The translations under genes and the position numbers were made by a program. From Thermoproteota archaeon (GTDB taxonomy: Archaea; Thermoproteota; Methanomethylicia; Methanomethylicales; Methanomethylicaceae), in contig JARXPE010000001.1 of the NCBI GenBank assembly GCA_029887795.1, forward strand, positions 129,386 to 193,385: a stretch of DNA of 64,000 nt, in the 5' to 3' direction. The notes beneath the pieces are model-generated. The model was not told the origin of the DNA. It worked only from the letters and a program-made list of their open reading frames with translations, and searched no databases. This document shows positions 4,908-43,007 of the stretch, piece after piece. How positions within the stretch are numbered: the first letter of the stretch is position 1; the number at the start of each line of letters is the position of its first letter.

Positions 4908-6467
4908 TCAAAAGCCAGGAACTTCCTCTAGGAGCATGCCCTCGATCATGAATGGGGGGTTTCTGGAGGCTACGCCTAGGGCCTCTTTGAGTTTTGACTC
5001 TCTCTCCGCATAGATTTCCACGACCGGGTCGCCTTTCTTAACCGCGTAACCCATTTTCGCGTAGAGTTTAACGCCTGATCCCTTGTCGAGAGGTGCCCCC
5101 GCTGCCTTAGCAATCGCATTGATTGCGGAGTTATTTATGATGCTCACGTAGCCATCTGTGGGAGCCGCGAGTATGTACCTCTTCTCGCCTAATGGAATCT
5201 CGTCTGGCTTGATGTTGGGGTTACCTCCTTGGTTCTCGATGATTTCGCGGAACTTCTGGTAGGCTTTACCACTCCTTAGGATCTCCTTGGCCATGTCTTG
5301 ACCCCCTCCCCTAGGAGCCAAACCAGTCATCTCAAAGAGTGTGCCAGCAAGTGCAGTTGATTTCTCGATCAAGCTATTCGGACCCCTTCCCATGAGGGTC
5401 TCGAGCGCCTCTTTTGCCTCCAGTGCAGGACCCACGGTGTGACCGACCGGCTGACCTCCGTATGTCAAGCCACACCTAACCCTGATGCCAAGGCGGCTCC
5501 CCAACTCAATGAACTCGTTGGCAAGCTTACGTGCCTCCTCAAAACTTTCCACTTTCGCACCTCTTCCGGTTGGGATGTCCAAGACCAATGTCGAGACGCC
5601 CACGGCCAGCTTCTTCGCCATTATAGATGCCAACATCTGAGGGCGAGGGTCTATGGAGAGCGGATGTTCCACTCTTATGAAGAGGTCATCGGCTGGTGCA
5701 AGGTTCAGGCTGCCACCCCATGCTATATACCCTCCAGTTTTCTGGAGAAGTCTCCTGAGCTCGCTAACTGAAAACTCCACAGGAGCGAGTACTTCCATGG
5801 TGTCAGCAGTACCTGACGGACTGGTTATCGCCCTGCTGCTCGTCTTGGGTATCTTAAGTCCTGCGGCTGCCACTATGGGAACTATGAGGAGCGTCACTTT
5901 GTTTCCCGGGACGCCACCTATAGAATGTTTGTCGACCACAGGTTCTCCAAAATCTATTGTATTTCCAGTCTCAACCATAGCACGGGTTAGGCTCTCTATC
6001 TCATCCATGTTCATGCCGACGTACTCCTCAGCCATGAGAAAAGCGGCGACCTCGAGCTGGCTCAGAGAGTGTGTCACAGTGTCCTTCACTATCTGGGTTA
6101 TCTCTCCCTTGGTGAGTGTTTGACCTCTCATCTTTTTACGGATGTACTCAACCGATGGCGGGGTAGGAGCAGGGGATATCTCCACCTCTTCCCCTTCTGA
6201 GACAGGAAAATCCTGCAGCAGGTCTCTATAGATTCCGACCTCTCCTGGGCAGACTAGCCCGCTGGATACTTCAATGCGGCAAACTATCCTGTCGGATATA
6301 TCAATCCTTGCAAGGACATTCGCACCGCCCTTGCTAAGGCGGACTCGATCATGAATTCGGAGCATCATGCCCTTTGCATCCTGTTCGTTCAATACCACGC
6401 CCTTTTCTCCGGTGGTGATGTCTATGATTTTTGCCTTGAGAGTCGGCATTGCTAGATCACTACTCAT
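4908..6467 (-). CDS. deoA: AMP (NMP) phosphorylase
   Basis: DKHSIGGVPGN, PKTSSRAITSPSGTAD, N-terminal extra domain, 519 aa. Confidence 0.95.
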   Translation of the reverse strand: MSSDLAMPTLKAKIIDITTGEKGVVLNEQDAKGMMLRIHDRVRLSKGGANVLARIDISDRIVCRIEVSSGLVCPGEVGIYRDLLQDFPVSEGEEVEISPAPTPPSVEYIRKKMRGQTLTKGEITQIVKDTVTHSLSQLEVAAFLMAEEYVGMNMDEIESLTRAMVETGNTIDFGEPVVDKHSIGGVPGNKVTLLIVPIVAAAGLKIPKTSSRAITSPSGTADTMEVLAPVEFSVSELRRLLQKTGGYIAWGGSLNLAPADDLFIRVEHPLSIDPRPQMLASIMAKKLAVGVSTLVLDIPTGRGAKVESFEEARKLANEFIELGSRLGIRVRCGLTYGGQPVGHTVGPALEAKEALETLMGRGPNSLIEKSTALAGTLFEMTGLAPRGGGQDMAKEILRSGKAYQKFREIIENQGGNPNIKPDEIPLGEKRYILAAPTDGYVSIINNSAINAIAKAAGAPLDKGSGVKLYAKMGYAVKKGDPVVEIYAERESKLKEALGVASRNPPFMIEGMLLEEVPGF

Positions 6468-6503
6468 TAAGTTCTAATACGCCATTAAAAACCCTGCGGA
6501 CGT

Positions 6504-7823
6504 TCAGTCTTCACCCAAAGCCTTTCCACCCCAGTGCTTGAGCGCAACCTCCAGCTCCTTGTGGTTTTTTGAGTATTCCTCCAATGGAACGCCAGCGACG
6601 CAGGCGTCTATGGCTTGGCGCATGGCTGCTGCTCCTGCCCTAGTGCCGAGTGGATGACCATGGATGCCGCCACCCGCGTTTATGACGCAGTCTTTGCCCA
6701 AGGCTTCGAAATTCGCTGGTACAAGACCGGGGTGTACTCCCCCGGAGGCCACAGGAAAGACGCTCTTCAGTCCGAACCAATCGTCCCGAAGCGAATCGAT
6801 GATCTTTTTGAGCTCGTGCTTCCGCTCTTCTGTCGTACCCATCTTTCCCGCCCCTGTGCCCGTGTGGAGCTGGTCGCCACCCAGCATTCTAGCGATCTTA
6901 GCTATGACAAGCATGGAGATCCCGTGCCTTGGGTTTCTAGTGAAGGTAGCATGCATGGCTCTGTGCATGTGTATGGGGACTCCAAACGTGTAGCTGGAGA
7001 GGAACCACTCTACCGTTGGCAGACCTAGTATTATTATATCCAGCATCAGGGTATTTGCCCCGTTGTCGATGGCGGTCTCTGCCAGCTTTACCATTTTGTC
7101 AGGTGCTCCGGTGACGTTCACTGCAAATAATACTTTCCTGCCGGTCTCAGATTTTGCCTTGTCCAAGGCGTCCATGACCTTCGAGACGCGCTCCTCTAAC
7201 GGGCAGAAAGCCTGATTCACGAGCGTCTCGTCATCTTTTATGAAGTCGACACCCCCTAGGGCAGCCTCGTATGCAACCTTTGCAGTCTGCTCAGGGTTGA
7301 GCCCGACCTTTGGCTTAACGATAGTTCCGAGGTGAGGTCGAGGTGCCGAATCTGTGCCTACAAGACGCCTGACACCCTCTATACCAAACTCTGGACCGCG
7401 GTAGTGCCGGACCACCGACTTTGGAAATTCTATATCCACCAGTCGGACGTTCTTAAGGGCTGAAAGACCAAATAAGTTCCCTGCGACCATGCTCAGTATG
7501 TTTGCAATGCCGCTTGTCTCCAGATCGAACAAATCAAGAGGGAATGCGATATATACAAAGCCAGACTCGCCTTCGCCCTCCATTTTGTAAAGTTTTGCGG
7601 GAAGTTTAGTCCTGACCCATTCGTTAATAGTTGTGATCTCGGTCCAAGTCCCAATGGACTCCTCCGTGGCGATGGCAATGCCAGCGGATTTCAAGCCAAG
7701 CGGGCTCTCAACGTAGTATTTGGCTGAGATGTACTTATCTGGGTCAATCTCTTCGGGTCTGGCAGTAAATATCTCATCCATGTATAGTGGCGTGGTGGAT
7801 TCATCCTTCATACCCATACTCAT
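6504..7823 (-). CDS. rbcL: RuBisCO large subunit, form III-type
   Basis: EESIGTW, AGNLFG, KPKVGL, DFIKDDE, HRAMH, HTGT-GKM, SGG, GGGIHGHP: full catalytic set. Confidence 0.93.
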   Translation of the reverse strand: MSMGMKDESTTPLYMDEIFTARPEEIDPDKYISAKYYVESPLGLKSAGIAIATEESIGTWTEITTINEWVRTKLPAKLYKMEGEGESGFVYIAFPLDLFDLETSGIANILSMVAGNLFGLSALKNVRLVDIEFPKSVVRHYRGPEFGIEGVRRLVGTDSAPRPHLGTIVKPKVGLNPEQTAKVAYEAALGGVDFIKDDETLVNQAFCPLEERVSKVMDALDKAKSETGRKVLFAVNVTGAPDKMVKLAETAIDNGANTLMLDIIILGLPTVEWFLSSYTFGVPIHMHRAMHATFTRNPRHGISMLVIAKIARMLGGDQLHTGTGAGKMGTTEERKHELKKIIDSLRDDWFGLKSVFPVASGGVHPGLVPANFEALGKDCVINAGGGIHGHPLGTRAGAAAMRQAIDACVAGVPLEEYSKNHKELEVALKHWGGKALGED

Positions 7824-7824
7824 T

Positions 7825-8808
<984 letters not shown>

Positions 8809-25986: not shown

Positions 25987-26171
25987 ATGACTTCAACGCT
26001 TTAATTTTTGTGCCTTCTGGCTTAAAAATAAGACCTTTTTTTGGCTCAGTTGTACAGGAATAATAATTCGAATAATGATTAAAATTAATGATTTTGTAAA
26101 AATGACAATTTAAAAGAAAAATATAATAGTCACCATTTTAAACTTTATCGGTATTGTTTGGAGGGTTTTCG

Positions 26172-27146
26172 TTGGCTAAAAATGGAAAGAGGATTTTAGT
26201 TGCCCTTGGCGGCAATGCAATAAAGCAAGCACATGAGAAAGGAACGGCTGAAGAGCAGTTTAAGAATGTGTACACCACAGCTAAACACCTAGTGAACATG
26301 ATAGAACACCTAGGAAAGGACGACAGGCTCATAATCACACACGGAAACGGGCCTCAGGCCGGAAACTTGGCGCTTCAACAAGACATTGCCAAGGATGTTG
26401 TGCCGCCACAGCCGCTTGATGTCGTGGGTGCCATGACGCAGGGGCAGATAGGCTACATGTTGCAGCAATGTCTGGAAAACATAATGATGGAGAAGGGTAT
26501 GAAGGTCCCAGTGGTCGCTATAGTCAATCAAGTGCTCGTTGACAAAAACGATCCTGAATTCTTTGGGGAGAACGCCTCAAAGCCAGTTGGAAACTTCTTA
26601 ACAGAAGAAGAAGCCATGAAGATGAAGGCGGAGAAGGGGTGGATTGTAAAGAAAGTGAAGCCCAATGCACCAAAGCCATGGAGGAGAGTAGTCCCATCGC
26701 CAGATCCCATTGCAAATGTTGAGGCAGATGTCATAAAGATACTCGTGGACTCTGGCGTCGTCGTCATAGCCTCGGGCGGAGGGGGAATCCCAGTCATAAA
26801 GGAAAATGGGAAGCTCGTAGGGGTCGAGGCTGTGATCGATAAGGATCTGGCTGGCGAGAGGCTTGCAGAAGTCGTGGAGGCGGACATATTCCTGATTCTG
26901 ACTGATGTCGAGAAGGCTAAACTCAACTTTGGAAAGCCAAATGAGAAGGAGATCGACAGGATGACGGTGTCGGAGGCTAAGAAGTACTTAGATGAGGGGC
27001 ATTTCCTCCCAGGCAGCATGGGACCGAAGGTTAAGGCGTGTATTAGGTTCCTGGAGTGGGGAGGCAAAGAAGCGATAATAACTTCGCTGGACAAGGCAGT
27101 AGACGCCCTAGAGGGAAGAACCGGCACTCACATAGTAAAGGATTAA
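26172..27146 (+). CDS. arcC: Carbamate kinase
   Basis: ALGGNA, THGNGPQ, TQGQIGY, KPVG, RRVVPSP, GGGGIP, AVIDKD, GSMGPK. Confidence 0.95.
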   Translation: MAKNGKRILVALGGNAIKQAHEKGTAEEQFKNVYTTAKHLVNMIEHLGKDDRLIITHGNGPQAGNLALQQDIAKDVVPPQPLDVVGAMTQGQIGYMLQQCLENIMMEKGMKVPVVAIVNQVLVDKNDPEFFGENASKPVGNFLTEEEAMKMKAEKGWIVKKVKPNAPKPWRRVVPSPDPIANVEADVIKILVDSGVVVIASGGGGIPVIKENGKLVGVEAVIDKDLAGERLAEVVEADIFLILTDVEKAKLNFGKPNEKEIDRMTVSEAKKYLDEGHFLPGSMGPKVKACIRFLEWGGKEAIITSLDKAVDALEGRTGTHIVKD

Positions 27147-27286
27147 CTTTGGGCTCTGGTCTGATGTCATACTTCATCTTTTAGTCCGTAATACCAGCAC
27201 TCATCATAGCCCAATTATCCTAACACCTATTTTTTTAATAAACTTGACGGGTGATGCATAAGGCTTATTAGTAGTAATATAGGATA

Positions 27287-27334
27287 TTTGGATGGACAAT
27301 CCGTCCAAATGGTGTCATCTCGTCCACCTTTTTT
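27287..27334 (+). other. Intergenic hairpin(s) followed by oligo-T
   Basis: TTTGGATGGA-caa-TCCGTCCAAA; alternative pairing GGATGGAC/GTCCACC before TTTTTT. Confidence 0.35.
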
Positions 27335-27440
27335 CTATTTTTAAGGTGCTTAGAAGGTTAACGAGGCGTTTAAATGAAAGCCTAGGAGTTTTCTGCCGAT
27401 AAGGTTAAAATGGGCAATATTTTATACATATAAAATACTG

Positions 27441-28517
27441 GTGAAAACGATGAAGATTAAGGTAGCAATTGTGGGTGTTGGCAACTGCGCATCAGCCTTG
27501 GTCCAAGGGACCTACTTCTACAGGGATGCCCCCGAGGACAAAGATATCCCAGGGCTATTGCACGTTAATATGGGAGGATATCACGTCAGAGATCTAGAGT
27601 TTGTGGCGGCGTTTGATGTTGATGCTAATAAGGTAGGCAAAGACCTGTCAGAGGCAATTTTTGCAAGACCTAATAACACCAGGAAGTTCTGCGACGTCCC
27701 AAAGTTGGGGGTGACCGTTAAGAAGGGACCCGTGATGGACGGTTTGGGAAAATACCTGAAGGAATTTCTGACCGTGAGTGACGAGAAAGAGGTTGATGTT
27801 GCAGAGGAATTAAAGAGTTCTGGCGCAGAGATAGTCGTGAACTATCTGCCTGTGGGGTCAGAGCAGGCGGTGAGATGGTACGCGGAGCAGGCGCTAAAAG
27901 CCGGATGTGCCTTCGTTAACTGTATGCCGGTCTTCATAGCCTCCGACAAGGCATGGCAGAAGAAGTTCAAGGATAGGAATCTGCCTGTGGCTGGTGACGA
28001 CGTAATGAGCCAACTAGGTGCAACGGTCCTTCACAAGACCCTCGCCAAGCTTATGGTCGACAGAGGTGTGAGGATCATCGAGAGCTACCAGCTCAACATT
28101 GGAGGAGACACTGATTTTTTAAATATGCTTGAAGAGGCACGGCTAGTCTCCAAGAGGATAAGCAAGACCTCAGCTGTACAAGCAATGATCCCTTACGATA
28201 TTCCATTGAGGATCGGGCCCTCTGACTATGTGCAATTCCTAGACAACAAGAAGATCTGCTACATATACATTAAAGGAGAGTATTTCGGTGGCACGCCGGT
28301 TCAAGTTGATGTAAAGCTGGACGTCTGGGACGCGCCTAACAGCGGCGGGGTGGTGATAGATGTGATAAGGGCATGCAAGATTGCCCTAGACAGAGGGATT
28401 TCGGGACCGCTCATCAGTGCCTCGGCGTTCGCATTTAAACATCCACCAGAGCAGATGCCTTACGAGGTTGCGAAGAGGTGCTTTGAAGAGTTCATAGAGG
28501 GTAAAAGGGAAAGGTAA
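27441..28517 (+). CDS. ino1: myo-inositol-1-phosphate synthase
   Basis: GVGNCASALVQG, NYLPVGS, GDD, QLNIGG.TDFLNM, SKT, GPSDY, D.PNSGG. Confidence 0.93.
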   Translation: MKTMKIKVAIVGVGNCASALVQGTYFYRDAPEDKDIPGLLHVNMGGYHVRDLEFVAAFDVDANKVGKDLSEAIFARPNNTRKFCDVPKLGVTVKKGPVMDGLGKYLKEFLTVSDEKEVDVAEELKSSGAEIVVNYLPVGSEQAVRWYAEQALKAGCAFVNCMPVFIASDKAWQKKFKDRNLPVAGDDVMSQLGATVLHKTLAKLMVDRGVRIIESYQLNIGGDTDFLNMLEEARLVSKRISKTSAVQAMIPYDIPLRIGPSDYVQFLDNKKICYIYIKGEYFGGTPVQVDVKLDVWDAPNSGGVVIDVIRACKIALDRGISGPLISASAFAFKHPPEQMPYEVAKRCFEEFIEGKRER

Positions 28518-28605
28518 AATAGGGAAATTGAGGCGGACTTTTAATCACTATCAACATTTTTGTAAAAAAGATAAAAAATCTGTGAAACTGGTAAAATAAA
28601 AAAAG

Positions 28606-28917
28606 TTATGGGGTGGGTACCACAGACCTTCCCGAGAACCTTATTGCTTCGGCGGCATTGTCAGGTTTAATCTCGAAAGCAAGTGGTCGTTCGCACCACC
28701 AGAATTTTTGTGCCTTATCCGCCCTATAGTAGGGGCAGATCGGGCAGCACTTTGCCTCAAGCTTCAATAGATACCAGATCGGTGGTGCCTCATCGGACGG
28801 ATAGCTTTTCTGTGGCCATGGTTTCTCTTTTGACACGTATCCGGGGCACTTCGGGCTGACCCTAGGTTCTTGGTTCAGGATGTTCTTATATTCTGGGCAT
28901 AATATGCAGCATGGCAT
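28606..28917 (-). CDS. Small Cys-rich protein with duplicated CCxxCPxY motif
   Basis: ATG 14 nt after the carbamoyltransferase stop; CCILCPEY and CCPICPYY. Confidence 0.55.
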   Translation of the reverse strand: MPCCILCPEYKNILNQEPRVSPKCPGYVSKEKPWPQKSYPSDEAPPIWYLLKLEAKCCPICPYYRADKAQKFWWCERPLAFEIKPDNAAEAIRFSGRSVVPTP

Positions 28918-28931
28918 TGGATATAACCCCC

Positions 28932-29969
28932 TTATCTCCTTCCTCCCATTGTAAGGGCCATAATGCCCTTCTGTCCGTGTAGCCTGTTCTCTGCCTCGTC
29001 CACTGAGACGGACCATCTATTTGAGAATATCACCTCGGGTTCGACCTCAAGACCGACGTCGGCAGGCAGGCAGTGCATCCAGATACTGTTCTTGCGAGTC
29101 CTGTCCATCAGCTCGGGTGTCGTCTTCCAAGCGGCCAGGTTGTGAGTCTTCTTGTACTCCTCGTGTAGCTTTTCGTCGTAACCTCCTGCCTTTAAAAGTT
29201 CCCAGCTGCACCATCCCTTAGGATACACAACGAGCGCATCCTCAAAAGCCTCTTCCATATTGTGGACGATCTCGAACTTTGTGCCGTACTGGTCGGCGAG
29301 CTTTCTGGTATATTCCTCGACTGCTGGGTCTAGGTTGAACTTCTCAGGGTATGCTAGGGTGACGTCCATCTGAAGAAGTCTTGTGAAGAAGATTATGTTT
29401 GTCTGAGGGACTGCGACCGGCTTCCATGCGCCAGGGCTGTTGGCATAGCACATCACGAACTTCTTTCCTCTCAGGCTCCTGGCGTTGTATTTTTCGATCA
29501 CGGTCATCACATCTGCGACGCCTTGGCAGGGGTGCCACATATCGCATTCCATATTAATTACGGGGACTGTAGAGGCCTTGGCATACTCTCTCATTGTAAG
29601 GTTGCCTTCTCCGTAGTACTGACCCTTTACATATCTCCTTATGGCGATACCGTCACACATTCTGCTCATAATTGCGGCGGTCTCGTAAATGGTTTCACCA
29701 TGGGTTATCTGGAGCTTTCCTGGATCCAAGTCGTACGCCACGCCACCAAGCTGGGTTATTCCTGTAATGAAAGAGGACCTAGTCCTTGTGGAAGGGTTGA
29801 AGAACAGCGTAAATAGAGATTTGCCCTTGCAAAGATGGTCGTGTCTCTGACCCATTGCGTACTGCCTCTTCAGGTCGAATGAGACGTCCAATACTGTCCA
29901 AAGCTCTTCGTCACTCCATTCTATCTCGGGAGCTATCCAATGTTTTCCATGGAGTTCTGTTTTTACCAA
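28932..29969 (-). CDS. YgeW/AOTCase-like (knotted-type) carbamoyltransferase
   Basis: FFNPSTRT, HPCQ, HCLPAD; YANSPGAWKPVAVPQ loop and YPKGW in place of the OTCase DxxxSMG. Confidence 0.8.
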   Translation of the reverse strand: MVKTELHGKHWIAPEIEWSDEELWTVLDVSFDLKRQYAMGQRHDHLCKGKSLFTLFFNPSTRTRSSFITGITQLGGVAYDLDPGKLQITHGETIYETAAIMSRMCDGIAIRRYVKGQYYGEGNLTMREYAKASTVPVINMECDMWHPCQGVADVMTVIEKYNARSLRGKKFVMCYANSPGAWKPVAVPQTNIIFFTRLLQMDVTLAYPEKFNLDPAVEEYTRKLADQYGTKFEIVHNMEEAFEDALVVYPKGWCSWELLKAGGYDEKLHEEYKKTHNLAAWKTTPELMDRTRKNSIWMHCLPADVGLEVEPEVIFSNRWSVSVDEAENRLHGQKGIMALTMGGRR

Positions 29970-30065
29970 ATATCTCCCTCCGAGTTTTTGCTGGAATTGG
30001 GTATTGAGTTTTGGTTTAATAATACTTTCGCGAGGATTTTAAGAAACTATCACAAAAAAAAGAGG

Positions 30066-31445
30066 TTAGGTTAAGGGCTGGTGCTTCCCTCGGGGTATGA
30101 ACCTTCCCATGCCCTTCTTGCCCACGAACTCTCTGTTGTAGACAACAGGTTTGCCCCTCACGAAGACGTGAACAGGCATACCCTTCACTGTGAACCCCTC
30201 GTATATCGAATAATCAATCTTTGAGTGGAGGTTCTTCTGGTTCAGCTCCATCTCATAATTTGGATCGAATACGACTATGTCCGCGTCGCTTCCCACGTTT
30301 AGAGTCCCCTTCTTGGGATAGAGACCAAAGAGTTTTGCAGGGTTGTATGAAACAACCTCAACAAGTTTGTTTAATGAGATCCTGTTTTTGGCAACTCCCT
30401 CGCTGTAAAGTATCGGTATCATCGTCTCAGTGCCAGGGACGCCGTTCGGCACCTTGGTGAAGTTGTCTTTTCCTAGATCCTTCTGGGCGTCCGTAAATGT
30501 GCAATGATCGGTGGCTACGGTGCTTAGTGTGCCGTTTGCAAGTCCCTCCCAAAGAGCCTCGTTGTCTGCCTTGCTCCTCAGGGGCGGCGACATTATATAC
30601 CTCCTGCCCTTCGGGGAGAGGTATTTCTCGTCTGTGAGAACAAGGTAGTGGGGACAAGTCTCCCCGTATAGGTTCGGGTAGAGCTTTTTCATCCTTGAGA
30701 GTTCGGCTACACCCTCTTTTGTGGACATGTGTACTATGTAGAGGTTCCCTCCAGCCGCTGCAGCTAGCGCAAGACCCCTATAAACCGCTTCGCCCTCCAC
30801 GAAGTTTGGTCTGCTCTTGGCGTGGTACTCCGCGGACAATTTTCCAGAGGAGACATGCCGCTCTATTAGGAGCTCCAGAACGGAATTGTTCTCTGCATGG
30901 AGCTGGACCAAGAACCCGAGTTTCTTGCTCTCCTCCAGCATCCGGTATATTCTGCCGTCGTCGCTCATCAGCCCCTCTTTTCTGTATGGCATGAAGAGCT
31001 TGAAACTTGAGACTCCAGCTTCCAAGACCTTTGGGATCTCATTTACGAGGTCTTCAGTTAGGTTTGTCACAGCCACATGTATTCCATAGTCAATGACCAC
31101 TTTGGGATCCGCCTTACCCCTCCATAGCATGATAGTTTCCAAGAAGGTCTTATCCTTCGGCTGTATCGCAAAGTCCAAGATTGTGGTGACCCCACCAAAT
31201 GCTGCCGCTATTGTGCCGTACTCAAAGTCGTCGACCGTAGTGGTCCCCATGAACGGCATCTCCATATGTGTGTGGGCATCTATGCCCCCGGGCATGACGT
31301 ATTTGCCTGAGGCGTCCACGACCTCTTCTGCTTTTTCAGTAATATTTGATGCGATACTCACAATCTTGCCGTCCTTGACGCCTATGTCCGCTTTGAATGT
31401 GTCCTTCGGTGTGACTATAGTTCCGTTCTTTATTAATAAGTCCAT
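30066..31445 (-). CDS. hydA: Dihydropyrimidinase
   Basis: GGIDAHTH, SFKLF, HAEN, VHMS, ETCPHYL, SPPLR, TDHC, PNG. Confidence 0.92.
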   Translation of the reverse strand: MDLLIKNGTIVTPKDTFKADIGVKDGKIVSIASNITEKAEEVVDASGKYVMPGGIDAHTHMEMPFMGTTTVDDFEYGTIAAAFGGVTTILDFAIQPKDKTFLETIMLWRGKADPKVVIDYGIHVAVTNLTEDLVNEIPKVLEAGVSSFKLFMPYRKEGLMSDDGRIYRMLEESKKLGFLVQLHAENNSVLELLIERHVSSGKLSAEYHAKSRPNFVEGEAVYRGLALAAAAGGNLYIVHMSTKEGVAELSRMKKLYPNLYGETCPHYLVLTDEKYLSPKGRRYIMSPPLRSKADNEALWEGLANGTLSTVATDHCTFTDAQKDLGKDNFTKVPNGVPGTETMIPILYSEGVAKNRISLNKLVEVVSYNPAKLFGLYPKKGTLNVGSDADIVVFDPNYEMELNQKNLHSKIDYSIYEGFTVKGMPVHVFVRGKPVVYNREFVGKKGMGRFIPRGKHQPLT

Positions 31446-31494
31446 TATAAAGCCTCCAATATTAATATAGAAAAAGAAGCGTTTAAACACTCAC

Positions 31495-32703
31495 CTATTT
31501 TGTGACCTTCTTCCATGTTATGCATCCAGGCACAGGACAGAGATGTGTGCATAGGGAGCAGGCGTCGCACTTCTCCTCGTCGACTTCAGCGGACTTGCCT
31601 TGCTCGAACTTGATTGCTTGGTAACCGCCATCGCGACATGCCACATAGCAAAGACCGCACTTTATGCATAGGTCCTTGTTGATGCTGGCCACGACAGTGT
31701 AGTCCTTGTTGAGTTTAGACCAAGCCGTAAGTCTGGGGAGAGTCTTACCAATGATCTCTTGGACGGATGAGAATCCTTTATCTGCTAGGTAATTGGTGAG
31801 TCCGTCGACAAAGTCAGAGATTATTCTGTAGCCCCTCCACATAACTGCGGTACAGACTTGGACGCTGCCTGCGCCCACGAGGAGGTACTCCACAGCGTCC
31901 TTCCAAGTGGTTATCCCGCCTATTCCTGAGACTGGGATATTTGTTGCCTGTGCGATTTGGGCGACGCATCTGAGACCTATGGGCTTGACGCCAGGTCCTG
32001 AGAGACCTCCAAAAGTGCTCATCCCGTCGACTGTGGGTATCGGCTCAAAGGTGTCAATGTTTATACCTATCAGGCCGAGCACGGTATTTATCGCAGATAT
32101 GGCATCGGCACCAGCCTCCTCAGCAGCCTTGGCGGTAAACGCGATGTCTGTGACGTTCGGGGTTAGCTTCACCATCACTGGGACCGAGGAGCCGCGCTTT
32201 GCCGCCTTTGTCAGCTTCTGGATTAGTTCTGTTCTTTGACCGATGAATGCGCCCATGCCCCGCTCAGGCATACCATGTGGGCAGCCAAAGTTCAGCTCTA
32301 GCATGTCGACCCCGGCTTCGCTCACCACTCTAGCTAGTTCTTCCCAGTCCTCCTCTTTGCACTCAGCCATGATACTGCCTATGAGTGCCTTTTCGGGGAA
32401 CTTCCTCTTGATCTCTTTAATCTCGTTAACCCATGTGCCAACAGGCCTCTTTGAGACTTCCTCAATGTTTTCGAATAGTATCATCTGCTTTGTCTCAAAG
32501 CCCATCACGCCAAATCTGTTCTTTAGGTCGTAGACAGGCGTCTTGTCCGGCTTTATTGTCTTGGTGACAGCTCCAGCCCAACCAGCCTCGAAAGCCCTCA
32601 TGATCATCTCACCAGTGCATGTCGGGGGCGCCGATGAAAGCAGGTACGGGCTCTCCAGCTCAAGGTTGCAGAATTTTACGGATATATCCGGTTTTGAAAC
32701 CAT
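31495..32703 (-). CDS. preA: Dihydropyrimidine dehydrogenase subunit PreA
   Basis: [28 protein letters not shown]-terminal 2x[4Fe-4S] motifs. Confidence 0.93.
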
Positions 32704-32722
32704 TTTTCTCACTTCCATAACT

Positions 32723-34084
32723 CTATTTCTTAGGACTCTTCCCTCCGGAGAGGAACTTGTCAATAGCAGCCGCAGCTTTCTTGCCCTCTGCCACTGCCTC
32801 GACCACAGTCTCACCGCCGTTTACGGCATCGCCTCCCGCAAATATGCCTTTTATGGAGGTGGAGAAGTTCTCGTCCACGACGATAAGCCCTTTTTCGGTC
32901 TTGACACCATAGGACTTCAGCAACTCTTCGTCTGGTTTCTGCCCGATTGCGACTATCACGGAATTTACATCGAGGCGGAACTCCGAGCCCTTTATGGGCT
33001 TTACCCCCCTCCTCCCAGATGAGTCGGGCTCGGTTAATTCCATCTTCACGCACTCAATTGCTTCCACGCTTTTTTCACCCAATATCCTGACGGGGGCGGT
33101 GAGCAACAGGAATTCGACACCCTCCTCCCTCGCCTGATTTCTGCCGTAAGGCACCGCAGGCATTTCTGCGAAAGACCTCCTATAGACTATGTATACCCTT
33201 TCTGCCCCGAGCCTCACAGAGGCGCAGGCTGCATCTATGGCGGTGTCCCCACCGCCGATCACTGCAACCCTCTTACCTTTGAGGTCGGGCGCCTTACCCT
33301 CCCCCATCAACCATTTTGCGACGGATTGTAGAAATTCCTGTGCCGGATAAACGCCATTGAGATCCTCGCCCGGTATACCAAGTTTTTGAGACTTTGTGGC
33401 ACCGATGCCCACGAAGACTGCATCATACTCCTTCAGGAGGGATTTGAGGTCAGTGATTTTCTTGTTGGTGACAAAGTTAATGCCATACTCCTTTATGAGG
33501 TCTATCTCAGACTCTGGGACGGACCAAGGTGCCTTCCAGGGAAGGATGCCGTAAAGTAGCAGACCACCGGGTTTGGGGTTTGCGTCAAAGACAGTGACGC
33601 CGTATCCCATGCGCGCCAGCTCGTATGCGGCCGATAATCCAGCCGGACCTGCGCCCACCACCGCAACCTTTTTGTTTTTGGAACGCGACTTCGGGAACTT
33701 GACGAGTCCTTTAAGCTTCTCTTTCTCGTAGGCGAACCTCTGAAGCATTGAGATTGCCACGGGCTCCTCGTTTAGGTTCCTCCTGACACATTTCGACTCG
33801 CAGAGTCGCTCAACCGGACAGACATAACCACATTCACCACCTAAGATGTTGCTTTCTCGTATCACCTTGGCTGCACCGTAGAAGTTTCCAGTCTTTATTC
33901 TGTAAATGAATTCAGGAATGTTGATTCCAGCTGGGCAGGCTGAGATGCATGGGGCGTCAAAGCACATGAGGCACCTTGAGGCTTCGTAGACCGCAAGTCT
34001 GTCGTCGAGATTTGAGACGTATGGAGCGAAGCTAGAAACCCTCTCATGCGGAGGAATGGTTTTAGTATGGACTCTACCTGACAT
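32723..34084 (-). CDS. preT: Dihydropyrimidine dehydrogenase subunit PreT (GltD-like FAD/Fe-S)
   Basis: RCLMCFDAPC...CP, CG.VCPVERLCE, GAGPAG, GGGDTAID, AGGD; directly upstream of preA. Confidence 0.88.
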   Translation of the reverse strand: MSGRVHTKTIPPHERVSSFAPYVSNLDDRLAVYEASRCLMCFDAPCISACPAGINIPEFIYRIKTGNFYGAAKVIRESNILGGECGYVCPVERLCESKCVRRNLNEEPVAISMLQRFAYEKEKLKGLVKFPKSRSKNKKVAVVGAGPAGLSAAYELARMGYGVTVFDANPKPGGLLLYGILPWKAPWSVPESEIDLIKEYGINFVTNKKITDLKSLLKEYDAVFVGIGATKSQKLGIPGEDLNGVYPAQEFLQSVAKWLMGEGKAPDLKGKRVAVIGGGDTAIDAACASVRLGAERVYIVYRRSFAEMPAVPYGRNQAREEGVEFLLLTAPVRILGEKSVEAIECVKMELTEPDSSGRRGVKPIKGSEFRLDVNSVIVAIGQKPDEELLKSYGVKTEKGLIVVDENFSTSIKGIFAGGDAVNGGETVVEAVAEGKKAAAAIDKFLSGGKSPKK

Positions 34085-34150
34085 AGAATTCGCTCCTGAG
34101 AGGATTAATGGTTAATAAGGGGTTTTAATTAAGGCTTTCGTGATAGAATT

Positions 34151-34837
34151 ATGGATCTCTCAGAAGGAAGGGTTGTAAAAGGTATCGTATTCGATCTGGA
34201 CGGTACACTAGTTGACTCCGTCGACTCTATTTGGAGGTCCTCTGATTACGTGCTAAGGAGTAATGGATACCGCGGGTTAGACCGTGAGGACGTCGTGAAG
34301 GTGATGGGTAAGACCATCTTTGACTTATTTCTGAGCGTGGAGCCCAGATTGAGTCCACAGGAGCAGCATAAACTGTTCGAGGAATATAGGAGAACTTATA
34401 TGAACTTCATAGAGCACACCAAGCTGATCCCTAAGGTAAGGGAGATCCTTCTGTTTCTAAGATCGAGAAGATTGAAGATGGCGGTCGTCACCACGAAGAG
34501 TAGGGAAAACGCCGAGAAGATACTATCCTTTTTCGGAATAAGAAGCTTCTTTGATTTGGTTATAGGATTTGAGGACGTTAGAGAACACAAGCCCTCGGCA
34601 GAGCCCATAATGAGGGCAGCTGAAGGGCTGGGTCTTCAAGCCTCGGAGTTGGTTGTGGTCGGGGACACCGAGGTCGACATCAGGGCGGGGAGAGAGGCGG
34701 GAGCATTAACGGTTGCCGTTAAGACGGGCGTAACTCCTTTAGAGAAGATTATAGCTGAGAGTCCAAACTTTTTGATTGAGAGTGTGTCGGACCTGCCTGA
34801 GGTTTTAATGCGAAACGGTATAGCTACGGGTGAGTGA
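34151..34837 (+). CDS. HAD-family hydrolase (phosphoglycolate phosphatase/PpaX-like)
   Basis: FDLDGTLVDS, VTTK, KPSAEP, VGDTEVD. Confidence 0.9.
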   Translation: MDLSEGRVVKGIVFDLDGTLVDSVDSIWRSSDYVLRSNGYRGLDREDVVKVMGKTIFDLFLSVEPRLSPQEQHKLFEEYRRTYMNFIEHTKLIPKVREILLFLRSRRLKMAVVTTKSRENAEKILSFFGIRSFFDLVIGFEDVREHKPSAEPIMRAAEGLGLQASELVVVGDTEVDIRAGREAGALTVAVKTGVTPLEKIIAESPNFLIESVSDLPEVLMRNGIATGE

Positions 34838-36119
34838 TGTTCTTTAGTATCTCATCGAACCGCCCTGCAGCAATGTCAATGTGTTCGCGGGTCAGGACCA
34901 ACGGAGGCTCTATTCTTATGACGTTGCCCTCTAACCCTCCGAGACCCACAAGGATCTTTTTCTTCCACGCTTCTTGCAGGAAGCTAACAGCTTCCTCTCT
35001 TGCGGGAACCTTTGTAGACCTGTCTTTCACCAGCTCGATCCCAAGAAAGAGCCCTATACCCCTGACATCTCCGATAATCTCGTATTTCTCCTGTAAGGAC
35101 TCCAGCCTGCGCTTAAAATATGAGCCGTTCTCCTTAACCTTTTCCATGAGACCGCCCGTTAGCTCCTCCAGGACAGCCTCCGCAGCAGCACATGCCAAGG
35201 CGTTTCCACCCAAGGTGGAGTAGTGCTCCCCAGGTCGAAGGGCTGAGTCGAGCTCCTCCTTGTAGATGGTTACACCGAGAGGGAGACCGTTGGCGATGGC
35301 TTTCGAGGTTGTCATCACATCCGGTATGATGCCATAGTGCTCAATACCCCAAAGTTTGCCTGTCCGACCGTTTCCAGATTGTACCTCATCCGCAATGAAG
35401 AGTATGGAATACTTGTCTAAAACCTGCTTGACTTCCTTGAAGTAATCAGAAGGAGGTATGATCATGCCACCGTTGGCCAGCATGGGTTCTGCCAATAGTG
35501 CTGAAATCGAGTCCCCCCCAACCTCGCATTTTATCACGTCCTCCATATACTTTACGCAGGCGAATCCACATTCGGGGCAGCTTCTATGCCCGAGCGGGCA
35601 CCTATAGCAATAGGGGTCGGGTGCAAACACCACTGGCGCGAATGGACCTAGTCCAACCTTCCAGCTTGACTGACCCAGAGCACTCATGGCGTAAAAAGTC
35701 CTGCCGTGAAACGACCTGTGTAGGGCGATTATGTAGGGTCTCTTCTTGACACGCTTCACGAGGGAGATCGCCGTCTCGTTGGCCTCTGAGCCGCTGTTCG
35801 TGAAGAAACTCTTGGTTAGGGCACCACCAGGAGAAAGTTCAGAGAGCCTTTTTGCAAGTCTTGCGGTGTAATCCAAGTAGTAGAGTGAGGATGTATGGAA
35901 GAGCTTGCGCATCTGCGCCTCAACTGCCCTGATTACACTCTGGTTCGACCAGCCCACATTGACTATGGATACGCCAGCGTATAGGTCGATGTAGGCATCC
36001 CCATCAATGGAGTAGACGATGTCATCAACAGCCCTATCTGGAACGAATGGATAGTAGTGCCTGTACATTCGCGAGAGGTAACGTTCGGAGAGGGCTATGA
36101 TATCTTTAGATGGGTTCAT
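34824..36119 (-). CDS. Class III PLP-dependent aminotransferase
   Basis: NSGSEANE, SFHGRT, ADEVQSGNGRTG, SKAIANG, STLGGN, DVRG.GL. Confidence 0.92.
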   Translation of the reverse strand: MNPSKDIIALSERYLSRMYRHYYPFVPDRAVDDIVYSIDGDAYIDLYAGVSIVNVGWSNQSVIRAVEAQMRKLFHTSSLYYLDYTARLAKRLSELSPGGALTKSFFTNSGSEANETAISLVKRVKKRPYIIALHRSFHGRTFYAMSALGQSSWKVGLGPFAPVVFAPDPYCYRCPLGHRSCPECGFACVKYMEDVIKCEVGGDSISALLAEPMLANGGMIIPPSDYFKEVKQVLDKYSILFIADEVQSGNGRTGKLWGIEHYGIIPDVMTTSKAIANGLPLGVTIYKEELDSALRPGEHYSTLGGNALACAAAEAVLEELTGGLMEKVKENGSYFKRRLESLQEKYEIIGDVRGIGLFLGIELVKDRSTKVPAREEAVSFLQEAWKKKILVGLGGLEGNVIRIEPPLVLTREHIDIAAGRFDEILKNITHP

Positions 36120-36179
36120 AAAACCACTCTGAAAATAAAGAGTGTGTATTGATGTTTATAAATTACGGAATTCTGGGAG

Positions 36180-36524
36180 TCACTTGGGAGGCGCGTTGAC
36201 TGCGATGAGCCACAGCGGTGTCTTTCCGATGTTCTTTATGGAATGGGGAACGTTTGGCGGAAAAACGAGGGCGTTGCCTGCCTTCACCTTGTACTCCTCG
36301 TTACCTATTGTGACCAGCGCCCTACCCTTCAGTATGTAGTAAGCTTGTTCGAATGGGTGGGTATGGGGATCTGCTCTACCACCAACCTCAAACTCAGACC
36401 TGAACATAGAGAGGTTCTTGCACCCAACATTTGCCTCCTCAAGTAAGACTCTAGTTATGCACCCATAGTGCAGCGGAGGGACAAAGGTGCGTGCTTCTTT
36501 TGGATCTATAACACGTTTCGTCAT
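36180..36524 (-). CDS. Cupin-domain protein
   Basis: PHTHPFEQ...G...PPNVPH cupin motifs. Confidence 0.9.
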   Translation of the reverse strand: MTKRVIDPKEARTFVPPLHYGCITRVLLEEANVGCKNLSMFRSEFEVGGRADPHTHPFEQAYYILKGRALVTIGNEEYKVKAGNALVFPPNVPHSIKNIGKTPLWLIAVNAPPK

Positions 36525-40534: not shown

Positions 40535-40612
40535 CGAGTGACCATCGAAGATTGTACAGAAAATCTAATTAAGTTTTCGTATGAATATTGGAAACATTGC
40601 GAGGGACGATGG

Positions 40613-41251
40613 GTGGGCAATGTTAAACTTGAGGCGCTCAAAGAGGCTCTACTTGAGCAGAATCAAAGAAAGGCGAAAGATCTCACAGAGGAATTTTTGC
40701 GGGAAGGGGTGGAGCCAAAGGAGATAATTGATGTGATATCTGAGGGCCTAAGATTAATTGGAGATCTGTTTGAGAAGGGCGAGTTCTTTCTGCCGGAGGT
40801 TATGAGGGCAGCGAATGCAGCCAAGGCATCTTTGGGCGTCGTGTTACCAATGATGGTTAAGGAGAATGTTGGTGATGGGCGAGGAGTGATTGCGATAGGC
40901 TCGCTGGGACCACATGACATCGGAAAGACCATAGTATCTTCGATGTTAATCGCAGATGGTTTCAAGGTGCTGGACATGGGCATCAACGTGACGCCGAGCA
41001 TCGTGGAGGATTTCCTAAGAAATAATAAAGTGGATATACTCGCCCTCTCAATTCTGCTAACATCCGACATAGATAAAGGTGCCAACATTATCGAGAGGGC
41101 AAGGAAGGTCTTAAGCGGTCTCAAGGTGATGGTGGGTGGAGCGGCTATGAGCCAAGATATTGCAAGAAAAATAAGGGCTGACGCGTACGGTAGGGACGCA
41201 AGCGAGGCTGTGAAGATAGCAAGAGAGCTTATTGGGGGTAAAGAGAAATGA
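40613..41251 (+). CDS. Corrinoid-binding protein (MtaC/MetH cap + B12-binding domain)
   Basis: GDLFEKGEFFLPEV cap, HDIGK.IV, S.LL, MVGGA, ADAY; start placed at GTG. Confidence 0.85.
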   Translation: MGNVKLEALKEALLEQNQRKAKDLTEEFLREGVEPKEIIDVISEGLRLIGDLFEKGEFFLPEVMRAANAAKASLGVVLPMMVKENVGDGRGVIAIGSLGPHDIGKTIVSSMLIADGFKVLDMGINVTPSIVEDFLRNNKVDILALSILLTSDIDKGANIIERARKVLSGLKVMVGGAAMSQDIARKIRADAYGRDASEAVKIARELIGGKEK

Positions 41252-42138
41252 TGACAATGAGAACGACCGTTATCGGGAGTTATCCGGTGGTTGGTGAGGG
41301 TCTGGAGGCAATAAAGACTGCTGTGAACGACCAGCTGGAGGCAGGCATTGAAATAATAAGCGATGGGCAGACGAGAAAGGACATGGTGTGCTATTTCGCA
41401 GACCACATACCCGGGTTTAAGGTTGAAGACGAGAAAGCTAAGATTGTAGGAAAGGTGAGACCCCCAGAAGAAACTCCCGTAGTGGACGACTTGATATTTG
41501 CGAGAAAGTTGGCTGGTGAAAGGGCCGAGGTGAAGGCCATAATTACCGGTCCTGTCACAATGGTTTTCTTTTCCGAACTTGCCCCAGAGGCACCCTATGC
41601 CGGGTTCCGGGACGAGAGGCTTTACGAGGATGTAAGCGAAGCCCTAGCTGTGGAGGTGGAGATTATTCAGAAGGCGGGCTTTACGAAGATACAGATAGAC
41701 GAACCCAGTTTTTCAATCGGGGCGCCCATGAATATAGGGAGAAAGGCGCTCGAATCGATCGTGTCCGACTTGAAGGGAACAAAAGCGCTTCATGTTTGTG
41801 GAAACCTTAGGAGGGTCTTCGGAGAGATCGTGAAGATAGAGGGGTTGGACGTCCTAAGCTTTTCATTCAAGGATAACGTCAGCAACTTTGACAGCGTTGA
41901 GAAGAAGCTTCTGAAGGATTACTCAAAGAAGCTCGGCGTGGGTTGTGTAAGTACGATGAGCCCAGAGGTGGAGGACGTGGACTCTATTAAGAAGGTACTG
42001 ACAAGGGCGGTTGGGTTATATGGATCGGAAAATATCGAGTGGGTTCATCCCGATTGTGGGCTGAGATCCTTCAAAAGGGATGAGGCGTTCATGAAACTCA
42101 AGAACATGGTCACTGCGGTGAGGGAGCTGAGGGGATAA
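41248..42138 (+). CDS. Core (single-barrel) methionine synthase-like methyltransferase, MesA-type
   Basis: TTVIGSYP, SDGQTR, ITGPVT, QIDEP, LHVCG, PDCGL; 296 aa, no N-terminal MetE barrel. Confidence 0.82.
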   Translation: MMTMRTTVIGSYPVVGEGLEAIKTAVNDQLEAGIEIISDGQTRKDMVCYFADHIPGFKVEDEKAKIVGKVRPPEETPVVDDLIFARKLAGERAEVKAIITGPVTMVFFSELAPEAPYAGFRDERLYEDVSEALAVEVEIIQKAGFTKIQIDEPSFSIGAPMNIGRKALESIVSDLKGTKALHVCGNLRRVFGEIVKIEGLDVLSFSFKDNVSNFDSVEKKLLKDYSKKLGVGCVSTMSPEVEDVDSIKKVLTRAVGLYGSENIEWVHPDCGLRSFKRDEAFMKLKNMVTAVRELRG

Positions 42139-43007
42139 TGGAAGTCCGCTTGGGTAACATAAAATTTGGCGATGTGCCGGTCATGATAGGCAGCCTGTTC
42201 TATAAATCGGACAGGAAGGTAATCGATCATAAAAGAGGCGATGTAAACAGACCAGCACTCCTTAGGGAGCTGAAGAGTGTCTCAAAACTCAAGGAAAGGA
42301 CGGGACTGTTTCATGCCCTAGACATAATAGCGGAAACTCCGGAGGCGATGGAAAGGTACATAGCCGCAGTTGCCGAGTTAACCGATGATCCCTTGCTCAT
42401 AGGGGGCCTCAATGAAGATACCAGAATCGCAGGTTACAGGAAGGCGTCCGAGTTGGGTCTGGTGGACAGGTGCGGTATAAATTCGGTGTCGCTTGCGACC
42501 AGCGAAAGGGAGCTAGAATGCATCAAAGATAGCGGGATTAAATTCGCAATAGTCCAGACATTGGACCCAGCTGCGGTTTACCCAGAAGAGAAGCTTCAAG
42601 TTTTGAAAGGAGGGCTCCTTGAAAGGTGCAGGAACGCCGGCATCACTGATGTTGCTATAGATGTCGGCATAATAGACTTCACGAGTGTCTGGCTGGCGGC
42701 AGAGTCGATTAAGGCGGTGAAGAATGAGCTTGGACTGCCTGCTGGATGTGCGCCCTCCAACGTTGCTTATCAGCCCCTGTTGAAGAAGAAGGTGACCAAG
42801 AGGGTCGCGAGATCGATGAATGTGGCACTCAACACGATGATACAAATCGCGGGGGCAGATTTCATACTGTATGGACCACTTAGGGCAGCAGGGTATATAT
42901 TCGAGGCAGCAGCCACAGTTGAGGGAATAAAGGCTTATGGAGAGAAGTTGAAGGGGAAGGCTTTTGAGAAGAGCCACCCACTTTATAAGTTCCTAGCTAA
43001 ACTCTGA
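42138..43007 (+). CDS. mtrH: MtrH-like methyl-pterin:corrinoid methyltransferase
   Basis: PVMIGSLFY...V.D..RG, NSV, GLPAGCAPSN, GADFILYGP, HPLYK. Confidence 0.8.
   Translation: MEVRLGNIKFGDVPVMIGSLFYKSDRKVIDHKRGDVNRPALLRELKSVSKLKERTGLFHALDIIAETPEAMERYIAAVAELTDDPLLIGGLNEDTRIAGYRKASELGLVDRCGINSVSLATSERELECIKDSGIKFAIVQTLDPAAVYPEEKLQVLKGGLLERCRNAGITDVAIDVGIIDFTSVWLAAESIKAVKNELGLPAGCAPSNVAYQPLLKKKVTKRVARSMNVALNTMIQIAGADFILYGPLRAAGYIFEAAATVEGIKAYGEKLKGKAFEKSHPLYKFLAKL

Follow-up and report, generated by a model that had tools for sequence, protein, structure and literature searches.

A predicted beta-alanine transcarbamylase linked to reductive pyrimidine degradation genes in Methanomethylicales-like archaea

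When pyrimidines are broken down reductively (Pyd pathway), PreTA (PydA) and HydA (PydB) are followed by the hydrolase PydC, and the aminotransferase PydD extends the route. A catabolic beta-alanine transcarbamylase has been conjectured by Shi, Allewell and Tuchman (2015, PMC4581275); the relevant passage of that review considers the activity possible, states that it remains to be proven, and names no gene. In purine catabolism, YgeW is reported by Liu et al. to act on 2,3-diureidopropanoate at its 3-ureido (beta) group and to form ATP together with YqeA (bioRxiv 2025.04.24.650524). Here we analysed a 64,000-nucleotide stretch of archaeal DNA (the window; C1:129386-193385 of the source genome G000, which is 1.25 Mb and 92% complete), in which preT, preA and hydA are followed by a transcarbamylase gene (TC, 28932-29969). 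We propose, with a probability of about 0.68, that TC phosphorolyses 3-ureidopropionate to beta-alanine and carbamoyl phosphate (CP) in place of the usual hydrolase, on the basis of its position, its co-occurrence with the upstream genes and the chemistry of YgeW. In the literature searched, which excluded most subscription journals, neither such a cluster nor a demonstrated beta-alanine transcarbamylase was found.

An earlier reading of the same stretch (the original prediction) had placed preT, preA, hydA and a carbamoyltransferase in succession on one strand, and all four were indeed found on the minus strand. The product of preT (32723-34084), the FAD/Fe-S subunit of dihydropyrimidine dehydrogenase, carries the Pfam domains Fer4_20 and Pyr_redox_2 and shows 35% identity to E. 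coli PreT. The FMN subunit encoded by preA (31495-32703) and the dihydropyrimidinase encoded by hydA (30066-31445) both exceeded the cut-offs of their families (NF006183, 538 bits vs 335; TIGR02033, 540 vs 393). After a gap of 96 nt comes TC, which encodes a knotted-type transcarbamylase of 345 aa and predicted beta-alanine (3-ureidopropionate) specificity. A gene for a 103-aa Cys-rich protein that matches no known family (28606-28917, minus strand) starts 14 nt after the TC stop; it had been overlooked in the original prediction. We refer to preT-preA-hydA-TC plus the Cys-rich gene as the module. The carbamate kinase gene arcC (26154-27146, likely start near 26172; TIGR00746, 410 vs cut-off 358) ends 1785 nt from TC with ino1 (27441-28517) in between, which agrees with the predicted 1.8 kb; that arcC and ino1 are on the plus strand, opposite to the module, had not been stated.

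The distribution of the module was surveyed in 33 genomes of the order (Methanomethylicales-like), which are related by kinship. Close TC orthologues (E < 1e-180; 75-99% identical in the relatives) and preA were present in the identical 14 of 33 genomes, and arcC was present in those 14 plus two others, G332 and G392. The genes preT-preA-hydA-TC were contiguous in 11 of 13 relative loci, and preT directly preceded preA in 11 of 13; in one locus (L015), hydA-TC and preTA were on different contigs. The hydA gene abutted TC in 12 of 13 loci, and in the thirteenth (L007) the contig starts 339 nt before TC. The Cys-rich gene accompanied TC in all 13. At all eight module-less loci, the whole block from preT to the Cys-rich gene was missing together with the neighbouring HAD phosphatase and cupin genes, while the aminotransferase gene and ino1 stayed. 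The linkage on which the original prediction depended is thus conserved in the relatives. Since these genomes are kin, the 14/14 pattern is one acquisition with several losses, not independent recruitment. A search for independent preTA-hydA-TC lineages gave no target-clade member among the metagenome matches listed. The closest TC-clade members outside the order, by cluster label, were from Bathyarchaeia (69%) and Hadarchaeum (53%). Chloroflexota contributed 43 of 251 TC-family matches, and the one with known context (L017) was purine-like. Among the preA-like matches outside the order, 20 of 35 were examined in context and none had TC nearby; one further case, in G357 (L022), was seen separately and is described below.

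The original prediction had seen no beta-ureidopropionase in the window; a search of the window and of G000 likewise gave no gene of the ureidopropionase type. The PydC model TIGR01879 scored over its cut-off in none of the 33 genomes, no nitrilase was found in G000, and the two M20 genes of G000 were, by inspection, LysK in a lysW cluster and an aminopeptidase-like gene. Since 28 of 33 genomes of the order have a nitrilase, its absence from G000 may be an assembly gap. The nitrilase that is common in the order had deaminated-glutathione amidase as its best match (below cut-off); its gene is unlinked and was found in genomes both with preA and without it. The nitrilases from nine loci of the order were likewise unlinked to the module, and for the scanned ones the best match was aliphatic amidase, Nit6803, deaminated-glutathione amidase (again below cut-off) or none at all. 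Three loci of Sulfolobales-like type (L138, L139 and L153; label inferred) served as a control and contained preA-hydA with a carbamoyl-amidase-like nitrilase and a permease; there, the nitrilase sits in the slot that TC takes here. These three loci, which have no preT match nearby, are an archaeal hydrolytic version of the pathway.

The first two enzymes were then compared with their pyrimidine and purine counterparts. PreA keeps positions N609, E611, N668, C671, N736 and T737 of pig dihydropyrimidine dehydrogenase (DPD), which are involved in uracil binding; S670 is replaced by Gly. It clusters with E. coli PreA and away from the homologues of purine clusters, which lack the cysteine motif. 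HydA gave D-hydantoinase/dihydropyrimidinase as best PDB matches and groups with the Sulfolobales-like enzymes adjoining preA, apart from E. coli HyuA. Both a PreTA dihydropyrimidine dehydrogenase and, by family assignment, a dihydropyrimidinase are thus encoded, and judged from their sequences, their activities are probably of the pyrimidine type rather than the purine-cluster type. A tblastn search of G000, a 92% complete genome, gave no match for xdhA-D, ssnA, ygeX, guaD, xanQ or uacT, and its sole YgeY match was the LysK-like M20 gene.

These observations bear on the possibility that the module degrades another cyclic ureide, for example a substituted pyrimidine or a purine-derived compound as in the case of YgeW, with albizziin, 2,3-diureidopropanoate or a similarly substituted ureido acid as the substrate of TC. 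A purine-pathway marker, defined loosely by BLAST matches with proteins of E. coli or C. novyi, was present in 26 of 37 loci of at least 8 kb with distant TC homologues (36-46%); 21 of the 37 carry arcC, and a C. novyi plasmid has a TC homologue in the ygeW position, after dpaL-hydA-ygeY. In addition, the cupin, HAD and Cys-rich genes lie outside the textbook pathway, and in C. difficile it is purine reduction in which UacX, a homologue of PydA, takes part (PMC12507026). However, G000 gave no purine match apart from the LysK-like gene just mentioned, PreA keeps the DPD catalytic motif that is missing from the purine-cluster homologues, and YgeW residues D124, Q160 and S200 are not kept in TC. 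We thus regard another ureide as an unlikely substrate.

Several related loci were recorded in the course of this comparison. In G357 (L022:3413-8760), a TC homologue (46%) lies right after hydA (48%), divergent from a split preA-like gene and accompanied by a deaminase gene, which is a possible independent case. On a Pusillibacter faecalis plasmid (L120:7316-18825), preA is followed within a single run by genes for an allantoinase-like amidohydrolase and a transcarbamylase, by larA, by transporter and nitrilase genes and by arcC; it was rejected as support, with its transcarbamylase from another branch, the amidohydrolase being allantoinase-like and a nitrilase being also present. Two different knotted-type transcarbamylases occur in many archaeal or metagenome loci (L023, L026, L033, L035-L040, L043, L045, L046 and L049), frequently alongside arcC, xdhABC and the gene of a PLP enzyme resembling threonine synthase; phosphorolysis there might extend to both ureido groups of 2,3-diureidopropanoate, in which case each purine would yield two CP. 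In L056, L057, L061, L063 and L066, a pyrB-like gene stands directly or nearly directly before a YgeW-like transcarbamylase gene, with arcC after it in four of the five, and these pyrB-like genes are possibly pseudo-aspartate transcarbamylases resembling ureidoglycine transcarbamylase. An ABC-permease/transcarbamylase fusion across an N gap (L021:5149-7107) is probably an assembly artefact.

TC itself fell below the cut-off of all 16 transcarbamylase models that it matched in a profile search, including ornithine transcarbamylase (OTCase, 209/306), acetylornithine transcarbamylase (AOTCase, NF003384, 201/288), and YgeW (NF005538, 199/453; TIGR03316, 191/500). The YgeW model is narrow, since the short C. 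novyi protein in the YgeW position fails the YgeW models too. The superfamily motifs SxRT, HPxQ and HxLP, as defined in PMC4581275, are at residues 60, 146 and 299. The features listed in the original prediction (STRT, HPxQ, a YgeW-type Pro-rich loop, YPKGW and HCLPAD) were all located, at residues 60, 146, 175, 249 and 299, and a motif search of the TC sequence confirmed the stated absence of the OTCase motif DxxxSMG. The proline-rich loop (175-189), which along with an extended 120s loop is characteristic of the knotted group, aligns with that of YgeW, and TC was placed with the knotted transcarbamylases in the tree. Trees were built with FastTree (270 sequences) and IQ-TREE (66 sequences; quick search, SH-aLRT only). 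In the latter, TC formed a clade of its own (8 rows, SH-aLRT 100), outside the clade of E. coli YgeW and short purine-cluster proteins (18 rows, SH-aLRT 98) and outside the AOTCase clade (7 rows, SH-aLRT 99; 4 of 7 checked as AOTCases); the deeper branching order among the knotted clades was not resolved. The most basal member of the TC clade was in a cluster labelled Bathyarchaeia.

Compared with E. coli YgeW, TC is 38.5% identical and shorter (345 vs 396 aa), without the extra terminal helices and the long 240s loop of YgeW. It keeps YgeW residues Q98, K203, K270 and D334, whereas D124 and S200 are not kept and Q160 is changed to Glu. Six of these (D124, Q160, S200, K203, K270 and D334) have been proposed as residues for the second substrate of YgeW. 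TC would work in the manner of YgeW with YqeA but is no YgeW by model, length, clade or context. The predicted TC structure (pLDDT 96.7) had AOTCase (Z 43.6, rmsd 1.4), YgeW of E. faecalis (Z 41.4) and OTCase (Z 40.5) as nearest folds. The best of these matches, AOTCase and YgeW, are knotted, and TC may share the trefoil knot in the second domain. Such fold matches do not tell the substrate of the modelled enzyme. The AOTCase pair E144/K252 is matched by E141/K251 of TC, as mapped via YgeW Q160/K270, with which it is equated in PMC4581275.

The nearest fold and the Glu141/Lys251 pair would fit an AOTCase-like arginine or citrulline enzyme that merely lies beside hydA, with ureidopropionate being excreted or hydrolysed by an unlinked nitrilase. 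The promoter-like element of its own that TC has and the nitrilases of 28 of 33 genomes are compatible with this, and E. coli has preTA but is not known to have a third step. Nevertheless, TC is well below the AOTCase cut-off, the true AOTCases form a separate clade, and the long 80s loop of AOTCase with Trp77 is missing, TC having a short loop with Gln87. Furthermore, a true, canonical OTCase is encoded separately on contig C6 of G000, argGH and lysW genes are also present, and TC was gained and lost exactly with preA. An AOTCase-like function thus appears quite improbable, and phosphorolysis of 3-ureidopropionate is preferred.

The fate of the CP was considered next. The carA and carB genes were not found in G000. 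Across the order, carB was present in 4 of 14 module genomes vs 15 of 19 others (Fisher test, p 0.006) and, among genomes at least 90% complete, in 2 of 7 vs 10 of 11 (p 0.013), both tests overstating the difference since kin are not independent. In five module-less genomes (G112, G128, G040, G056 and G193; L159-L163), carA-carB lie beside ino1, in the slot of arcC, and the pyrimidine module, the cupin and the HAD gene are absent. This carAB pattern is a new observation: of the 14 module genomes, 10 gave no carAB, G000 being one of them, and in five module-less relatives carAB is in the arcC slot. CP should be needed for biosynthesis too, since pyrBI, pyrC, pyrD, pyrE, pyrF, argF (the true OTCase) and argGH are present in G000 (pyrE, pyrF and argGH by motif and inspection) while carAB was not found. 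Genes for arginine deiminase (ADI) and agmatine deiminase were not found in G000, the only genome searched for them. The ArcE-like query, which is probably ArcE judging from a motif and a published description, matched 4 of 33 genomes, G332 among them and G000 not; nine module genomes, four of them at least 92% complete, have neither carB nor an ArcE-like gene. ArcE is described in PMC11032458.

Since carAB, the ArcE-like gene and, in G000, ADI were not found, the CP of these cells would have to come from either TC or ArcC, barring a source that went unrecognised. In Thermococcus kodakarensis, which has no CP synthetase (CPS), a catabolic transcarbamylase and not carbamate kinase supplies CP (PMC13260591). 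The gene for HypF, a CP consumer, was detected in three of the carB-less module genomes but neither in G000 nor in G206 of the same genus, which may reflect incompleteness or a genus-level loss. G000 does have hypD, hypE, hypB and the motifs of the [NiFe] large subunit. CP may thus feed biosynthesis as well as ATP formation, and ArcC may run anabolically, in the CP-forming direction. The conversion of CP to ATP, as originally predicted, is a plausible fate, especially in the four genomes that keep carB, but not the only one, with carA/carB not found and the arginine and pyrimidine genes in need of CP.

It is possible, though the odds are against it, that ArcC is mainly an anabolic CP source replacing CarAB, in which case it would say little on ATP gain; this would be compatible with the TC assignment. 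The nine module genomes without carB and an ArcE-like gene, the alternation of carAB and arcC at one chromosomal slot, and the opposite strand and low RNA contig depth of arcC are all in keeping with such a role. De novo pyrimidine synthesis would also gain nothing from uracil-derived CP, and a CP-forming activity has been described for the Pyrococcus carbamate kinase (PMC13260591). However, according to the same source, arcC could not supply CP in vivo in T. kodakarensis. Moreover, arcC was found in none of 17 TC-less genomes, the two TC-less genomes that have it being G332, with its ArcE-like gene, and G392, which is 59% complete; and arcC is kept in four carB-bearing module genomes, where an anabolic role would be unneeded.

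The missing carAB, together with transcarbamylase equilibria that favour carbamoylation (PMC4016543), could also suggest that the module runs in reverse, with ArcC making CP, TC carbamoylating beta-alanine, and HydA and PreTA closing the ring and oxidising it to uracil. However, the full pyrBI/C/D/E/F set is present, and no aspartate decarboxylase that could supply beta-alanine was found in G000. The reduction of uracil by NAD(P)H is moreover the favoured direction, and we consider a reversed module very improbable.

In the degradative route that we propose, PreTA would convert uracil or thymine to its dihydro form, HydA would open the dihydropyrimidine ring, and phosphorolysis of the resulting ureido acid to beta-alanine and CP would fall to TC, perhaps assisted by the Cys-rich protein. 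Since ureido phosphorolysis is uphill, a CP sink would be needed: ArcC could turn surplus CP into ATP, and, carAB not having been found in G000, OTCase, aspartate transcarbamylase (ATCase) and HypF could draw on this CP to make arginine, pyrimidines and the ligands of hydrogenase. The beta-alanine could go to phosphopantothenate synthetase, which is encoded in 28 of 33 genomes. Free uracil could come from a nucleotide route in the same window, where genes for AMP phosphorylase, a RuBisCO-family protein (below the form III cut-off) and ribose-1,5-bisphosphate isomerase stand in a row (4908-8805, minus strand). This is the archaeal nucleotide-degradation route, which could release free uracil; the AMP phosphorylase route acts on UMP and CMP. 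A wider version of the proposal is offered tentatively and we doubt it more than we favour it: a beta-alanine transcarbamylase with a new Cys-rich metal-binding subunit would harvest CP from pyrimidine rings, the module, with ArcC as an overflow to ATP, would have replaced CPS in several lineages, and arginine and the cyanide ligands of [NiFe] hydrogenase would derive from nucleobase breakdown.

The core of the original prediction, that TC fills the ureidopropionase slot by phosphorolysis, outlived both the linkage survey and the search for PydC; the prediction as a whole is partly supported, its transamination and ATP-only steps being weaker. The bond that YgeW cleaves according to Liu et al., in the 3-ureido group, is the same as that in 3-ureidopropionate, and this counts for the proposed activity. 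Several points weigh against it. Li et al. assign the YgeW cleavage to the 2-ureido group (PMC12507026), and the dispute is stated in PMC12990295. The TC model lies closest to AOTCase, and TC has Glu at YgeW Q160. The usual job of the wider TC family would be the degradation of purine ureides, because 26 of the 37 distant loci are purine-linked; L022 is the only one of the 37 with a preA-like gene at 38% or above, which is split in two and scores under the cut-off for PreA. The arrangement was seen in essentially one lineage, and four module genomes keep carB. The absences in G000 are soft, because the genome is 92% complete and is without the nitrilase and hypF matches that relatives have. 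The genes for the cupin, the HAD protein and the Cys-rich protein accompany the module without being accounted for by the proposed route, and may point to a substituted pyrimidine. Finally, the idea that the module supplies beta-alanine is not discriminated, because aspartate decarboxylase is scarce with or without the module.

The original prediction had cautioned that a T-tract and a TATA-like element between hydA and TC might separate two transcripts. Both are present (30006-30065, minus strand), as a T-tract past hydA and a BRE/TATA-like element, likely an internal promoter, about 50 nt before TC. The caveat holds, because all 10 aligned loci have kept the element in front of TC. In the RNA-seq run X3, one contig (29614-34103) crossed the hydA-TC gap and, with a second one (28600-29641), spanned 28600-34103, which takes in everything between the beginning of preT and the end of the Cys-rich gene; no depth was seen over 34114-34981, where the HAD gene lies. 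The contig depth over TC was 38-45 vs 16.5 upstream in X3, and 95-130 vs 11-32 over hydA in run X4, i.e. about 3-fold or more above hydA in both, and that over arcC was well below that of TC; such depths come from assembled contigs and are a poor expression measure with no strand information, and the raw-read run X5 consisted of 2 reads. In a probable DNA run, all bins were covered, yet the depth was 26 over TC vs 8-11 over hydA. These data point to expression of the block, at a higher level for TC and the Cys-rich gene. A sigma-70 promoter and terminator scan, whose scope does not include archaeal promoters, gave chance-level counts.

The Cys-rich open reading frame is a real gene, since it differs from its L004 counterpart by 32 synonymous and 0 non-synonymous codon changes, and third-position changes dominated in 8 of 8 comparisons. 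Its product has 8 invariant Cys in two CCxxC...C repeats and is likely a metal-binding partner of TC. It gave no Pfam or NCBIfam match, a poor fold model (pLDDT 44) and Atlas matches of at most 0.85; homologues fell into 3 clusters only, and apart from the TC loci the gene was found in none of the other loci analysed.

Upstream of preT, the original prediction had correctly placed a class III aminotransferase gene (34824-36119, minus strand) and a cupin gene (36180-36524, minus strand), but had missed the HAD phosphatase gene (34151-34837, plus strand), which is divergent from preT and separates it from both. The HAD gene was beside preT in 11 of 11 relative loci covering the place, and its orthologue was absent at 8 of 8 module-less loci; it is a possible candidate nucleotidase. 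The cupin gene, with only weak PDB cupin matches, was present in 8 of 8 relative module loci covering the place and absent at 8 of 8 module-less loci. The aminotransferase, whose best PDB match is 7vno, a Pyrococcus-type class III enzyme named 4-aminobutyrate aminotransferase, was present in 19 of 33 genomes, 8 of them without TC and preA, and was not found in 3 module genomes. The predicted transamination of beta-alanine is thus weak; the gene was rejected as PydD or a defining part of the module since it does not co-vary with it, and is a locus resident. The ino1 gene (inositol-1-phosphate synthase, PF01658) is an unrelated resident, found at the locus with or without the module. Group II (aspartate) decarboxylase was over its cut-off in 1 of 33 genomes, and beta-alanine supply for CoA was dropped as a test of the module; the class III aminotransferase is a candidate beta-alanine source in module-less members. 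Elsewhere in the window (40538-43007, plus strand), consecutive corrinoid-protein-like, MetE-like and MtrH-family genes form a methyltransferase set.

If the proposal is true, a clade labelled OTCase or AOTCase in databases would be explained, and reductive pyrimidine breakdown could conserve energy, as was shown for urate in 2025. It would also be a possible answer to the CP source of Methanomethylicales lacking carAB, and the activity of TC would bear on the dispute over which ureido group YgeW cleaves.

Among known systems, the Pyd pathway is the nearest for the first two enzymes, which are family members with pyrimidine-type motifs; unlike in that pathway, no PydC-type hydrolase was found here and a transcarbamylase gene follows hydA, and the PydD extension is not supported, because the aminotransferase does not co-vary. 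The YgeW and YqeA enzymes of the 2,8-dioxopurine (reductive urate) pathway likewise combine a catabolic transcarbamylase of the knotted group, acting after a cyclic amidohydrolase, with a carbamate kinase (bioRxiv 2025.04.24.650524; PMC12507026). However, TC differs from YgeW in length, clade, profile scores and the three residues named above, and the locus has a pyrimidine-type dehydrogenase, an extra Cys-rich gene and no purine genes. In Rubrobacter xylanophilus, a ureidoglycine carbamoyltransferase and a carbamate kinase also replace an amidohydrolase, but the substrate is of purine origin (allantoate) and the enzyme is ATCase-like, outside the knotted group (PMC4016543). In the CPS-less T. 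kodakarensis, catabolic phosphorolysis by ArcE and a catabolic OTCase supplies CP for pyrimidines and [NiFe] hydrogenase (PMC13260591); the CP there comes from arginine, whereas here the search of G000 gave no ADI gene and nine carB-less module genomes gave no ArcE-like gene. The catabolic beta-alanine transcarbamylase conjectured by Shi, Allewell and Tuchman is exactly the activity proposed here, and TC, if our reading is true, would be a concrete gene for it.

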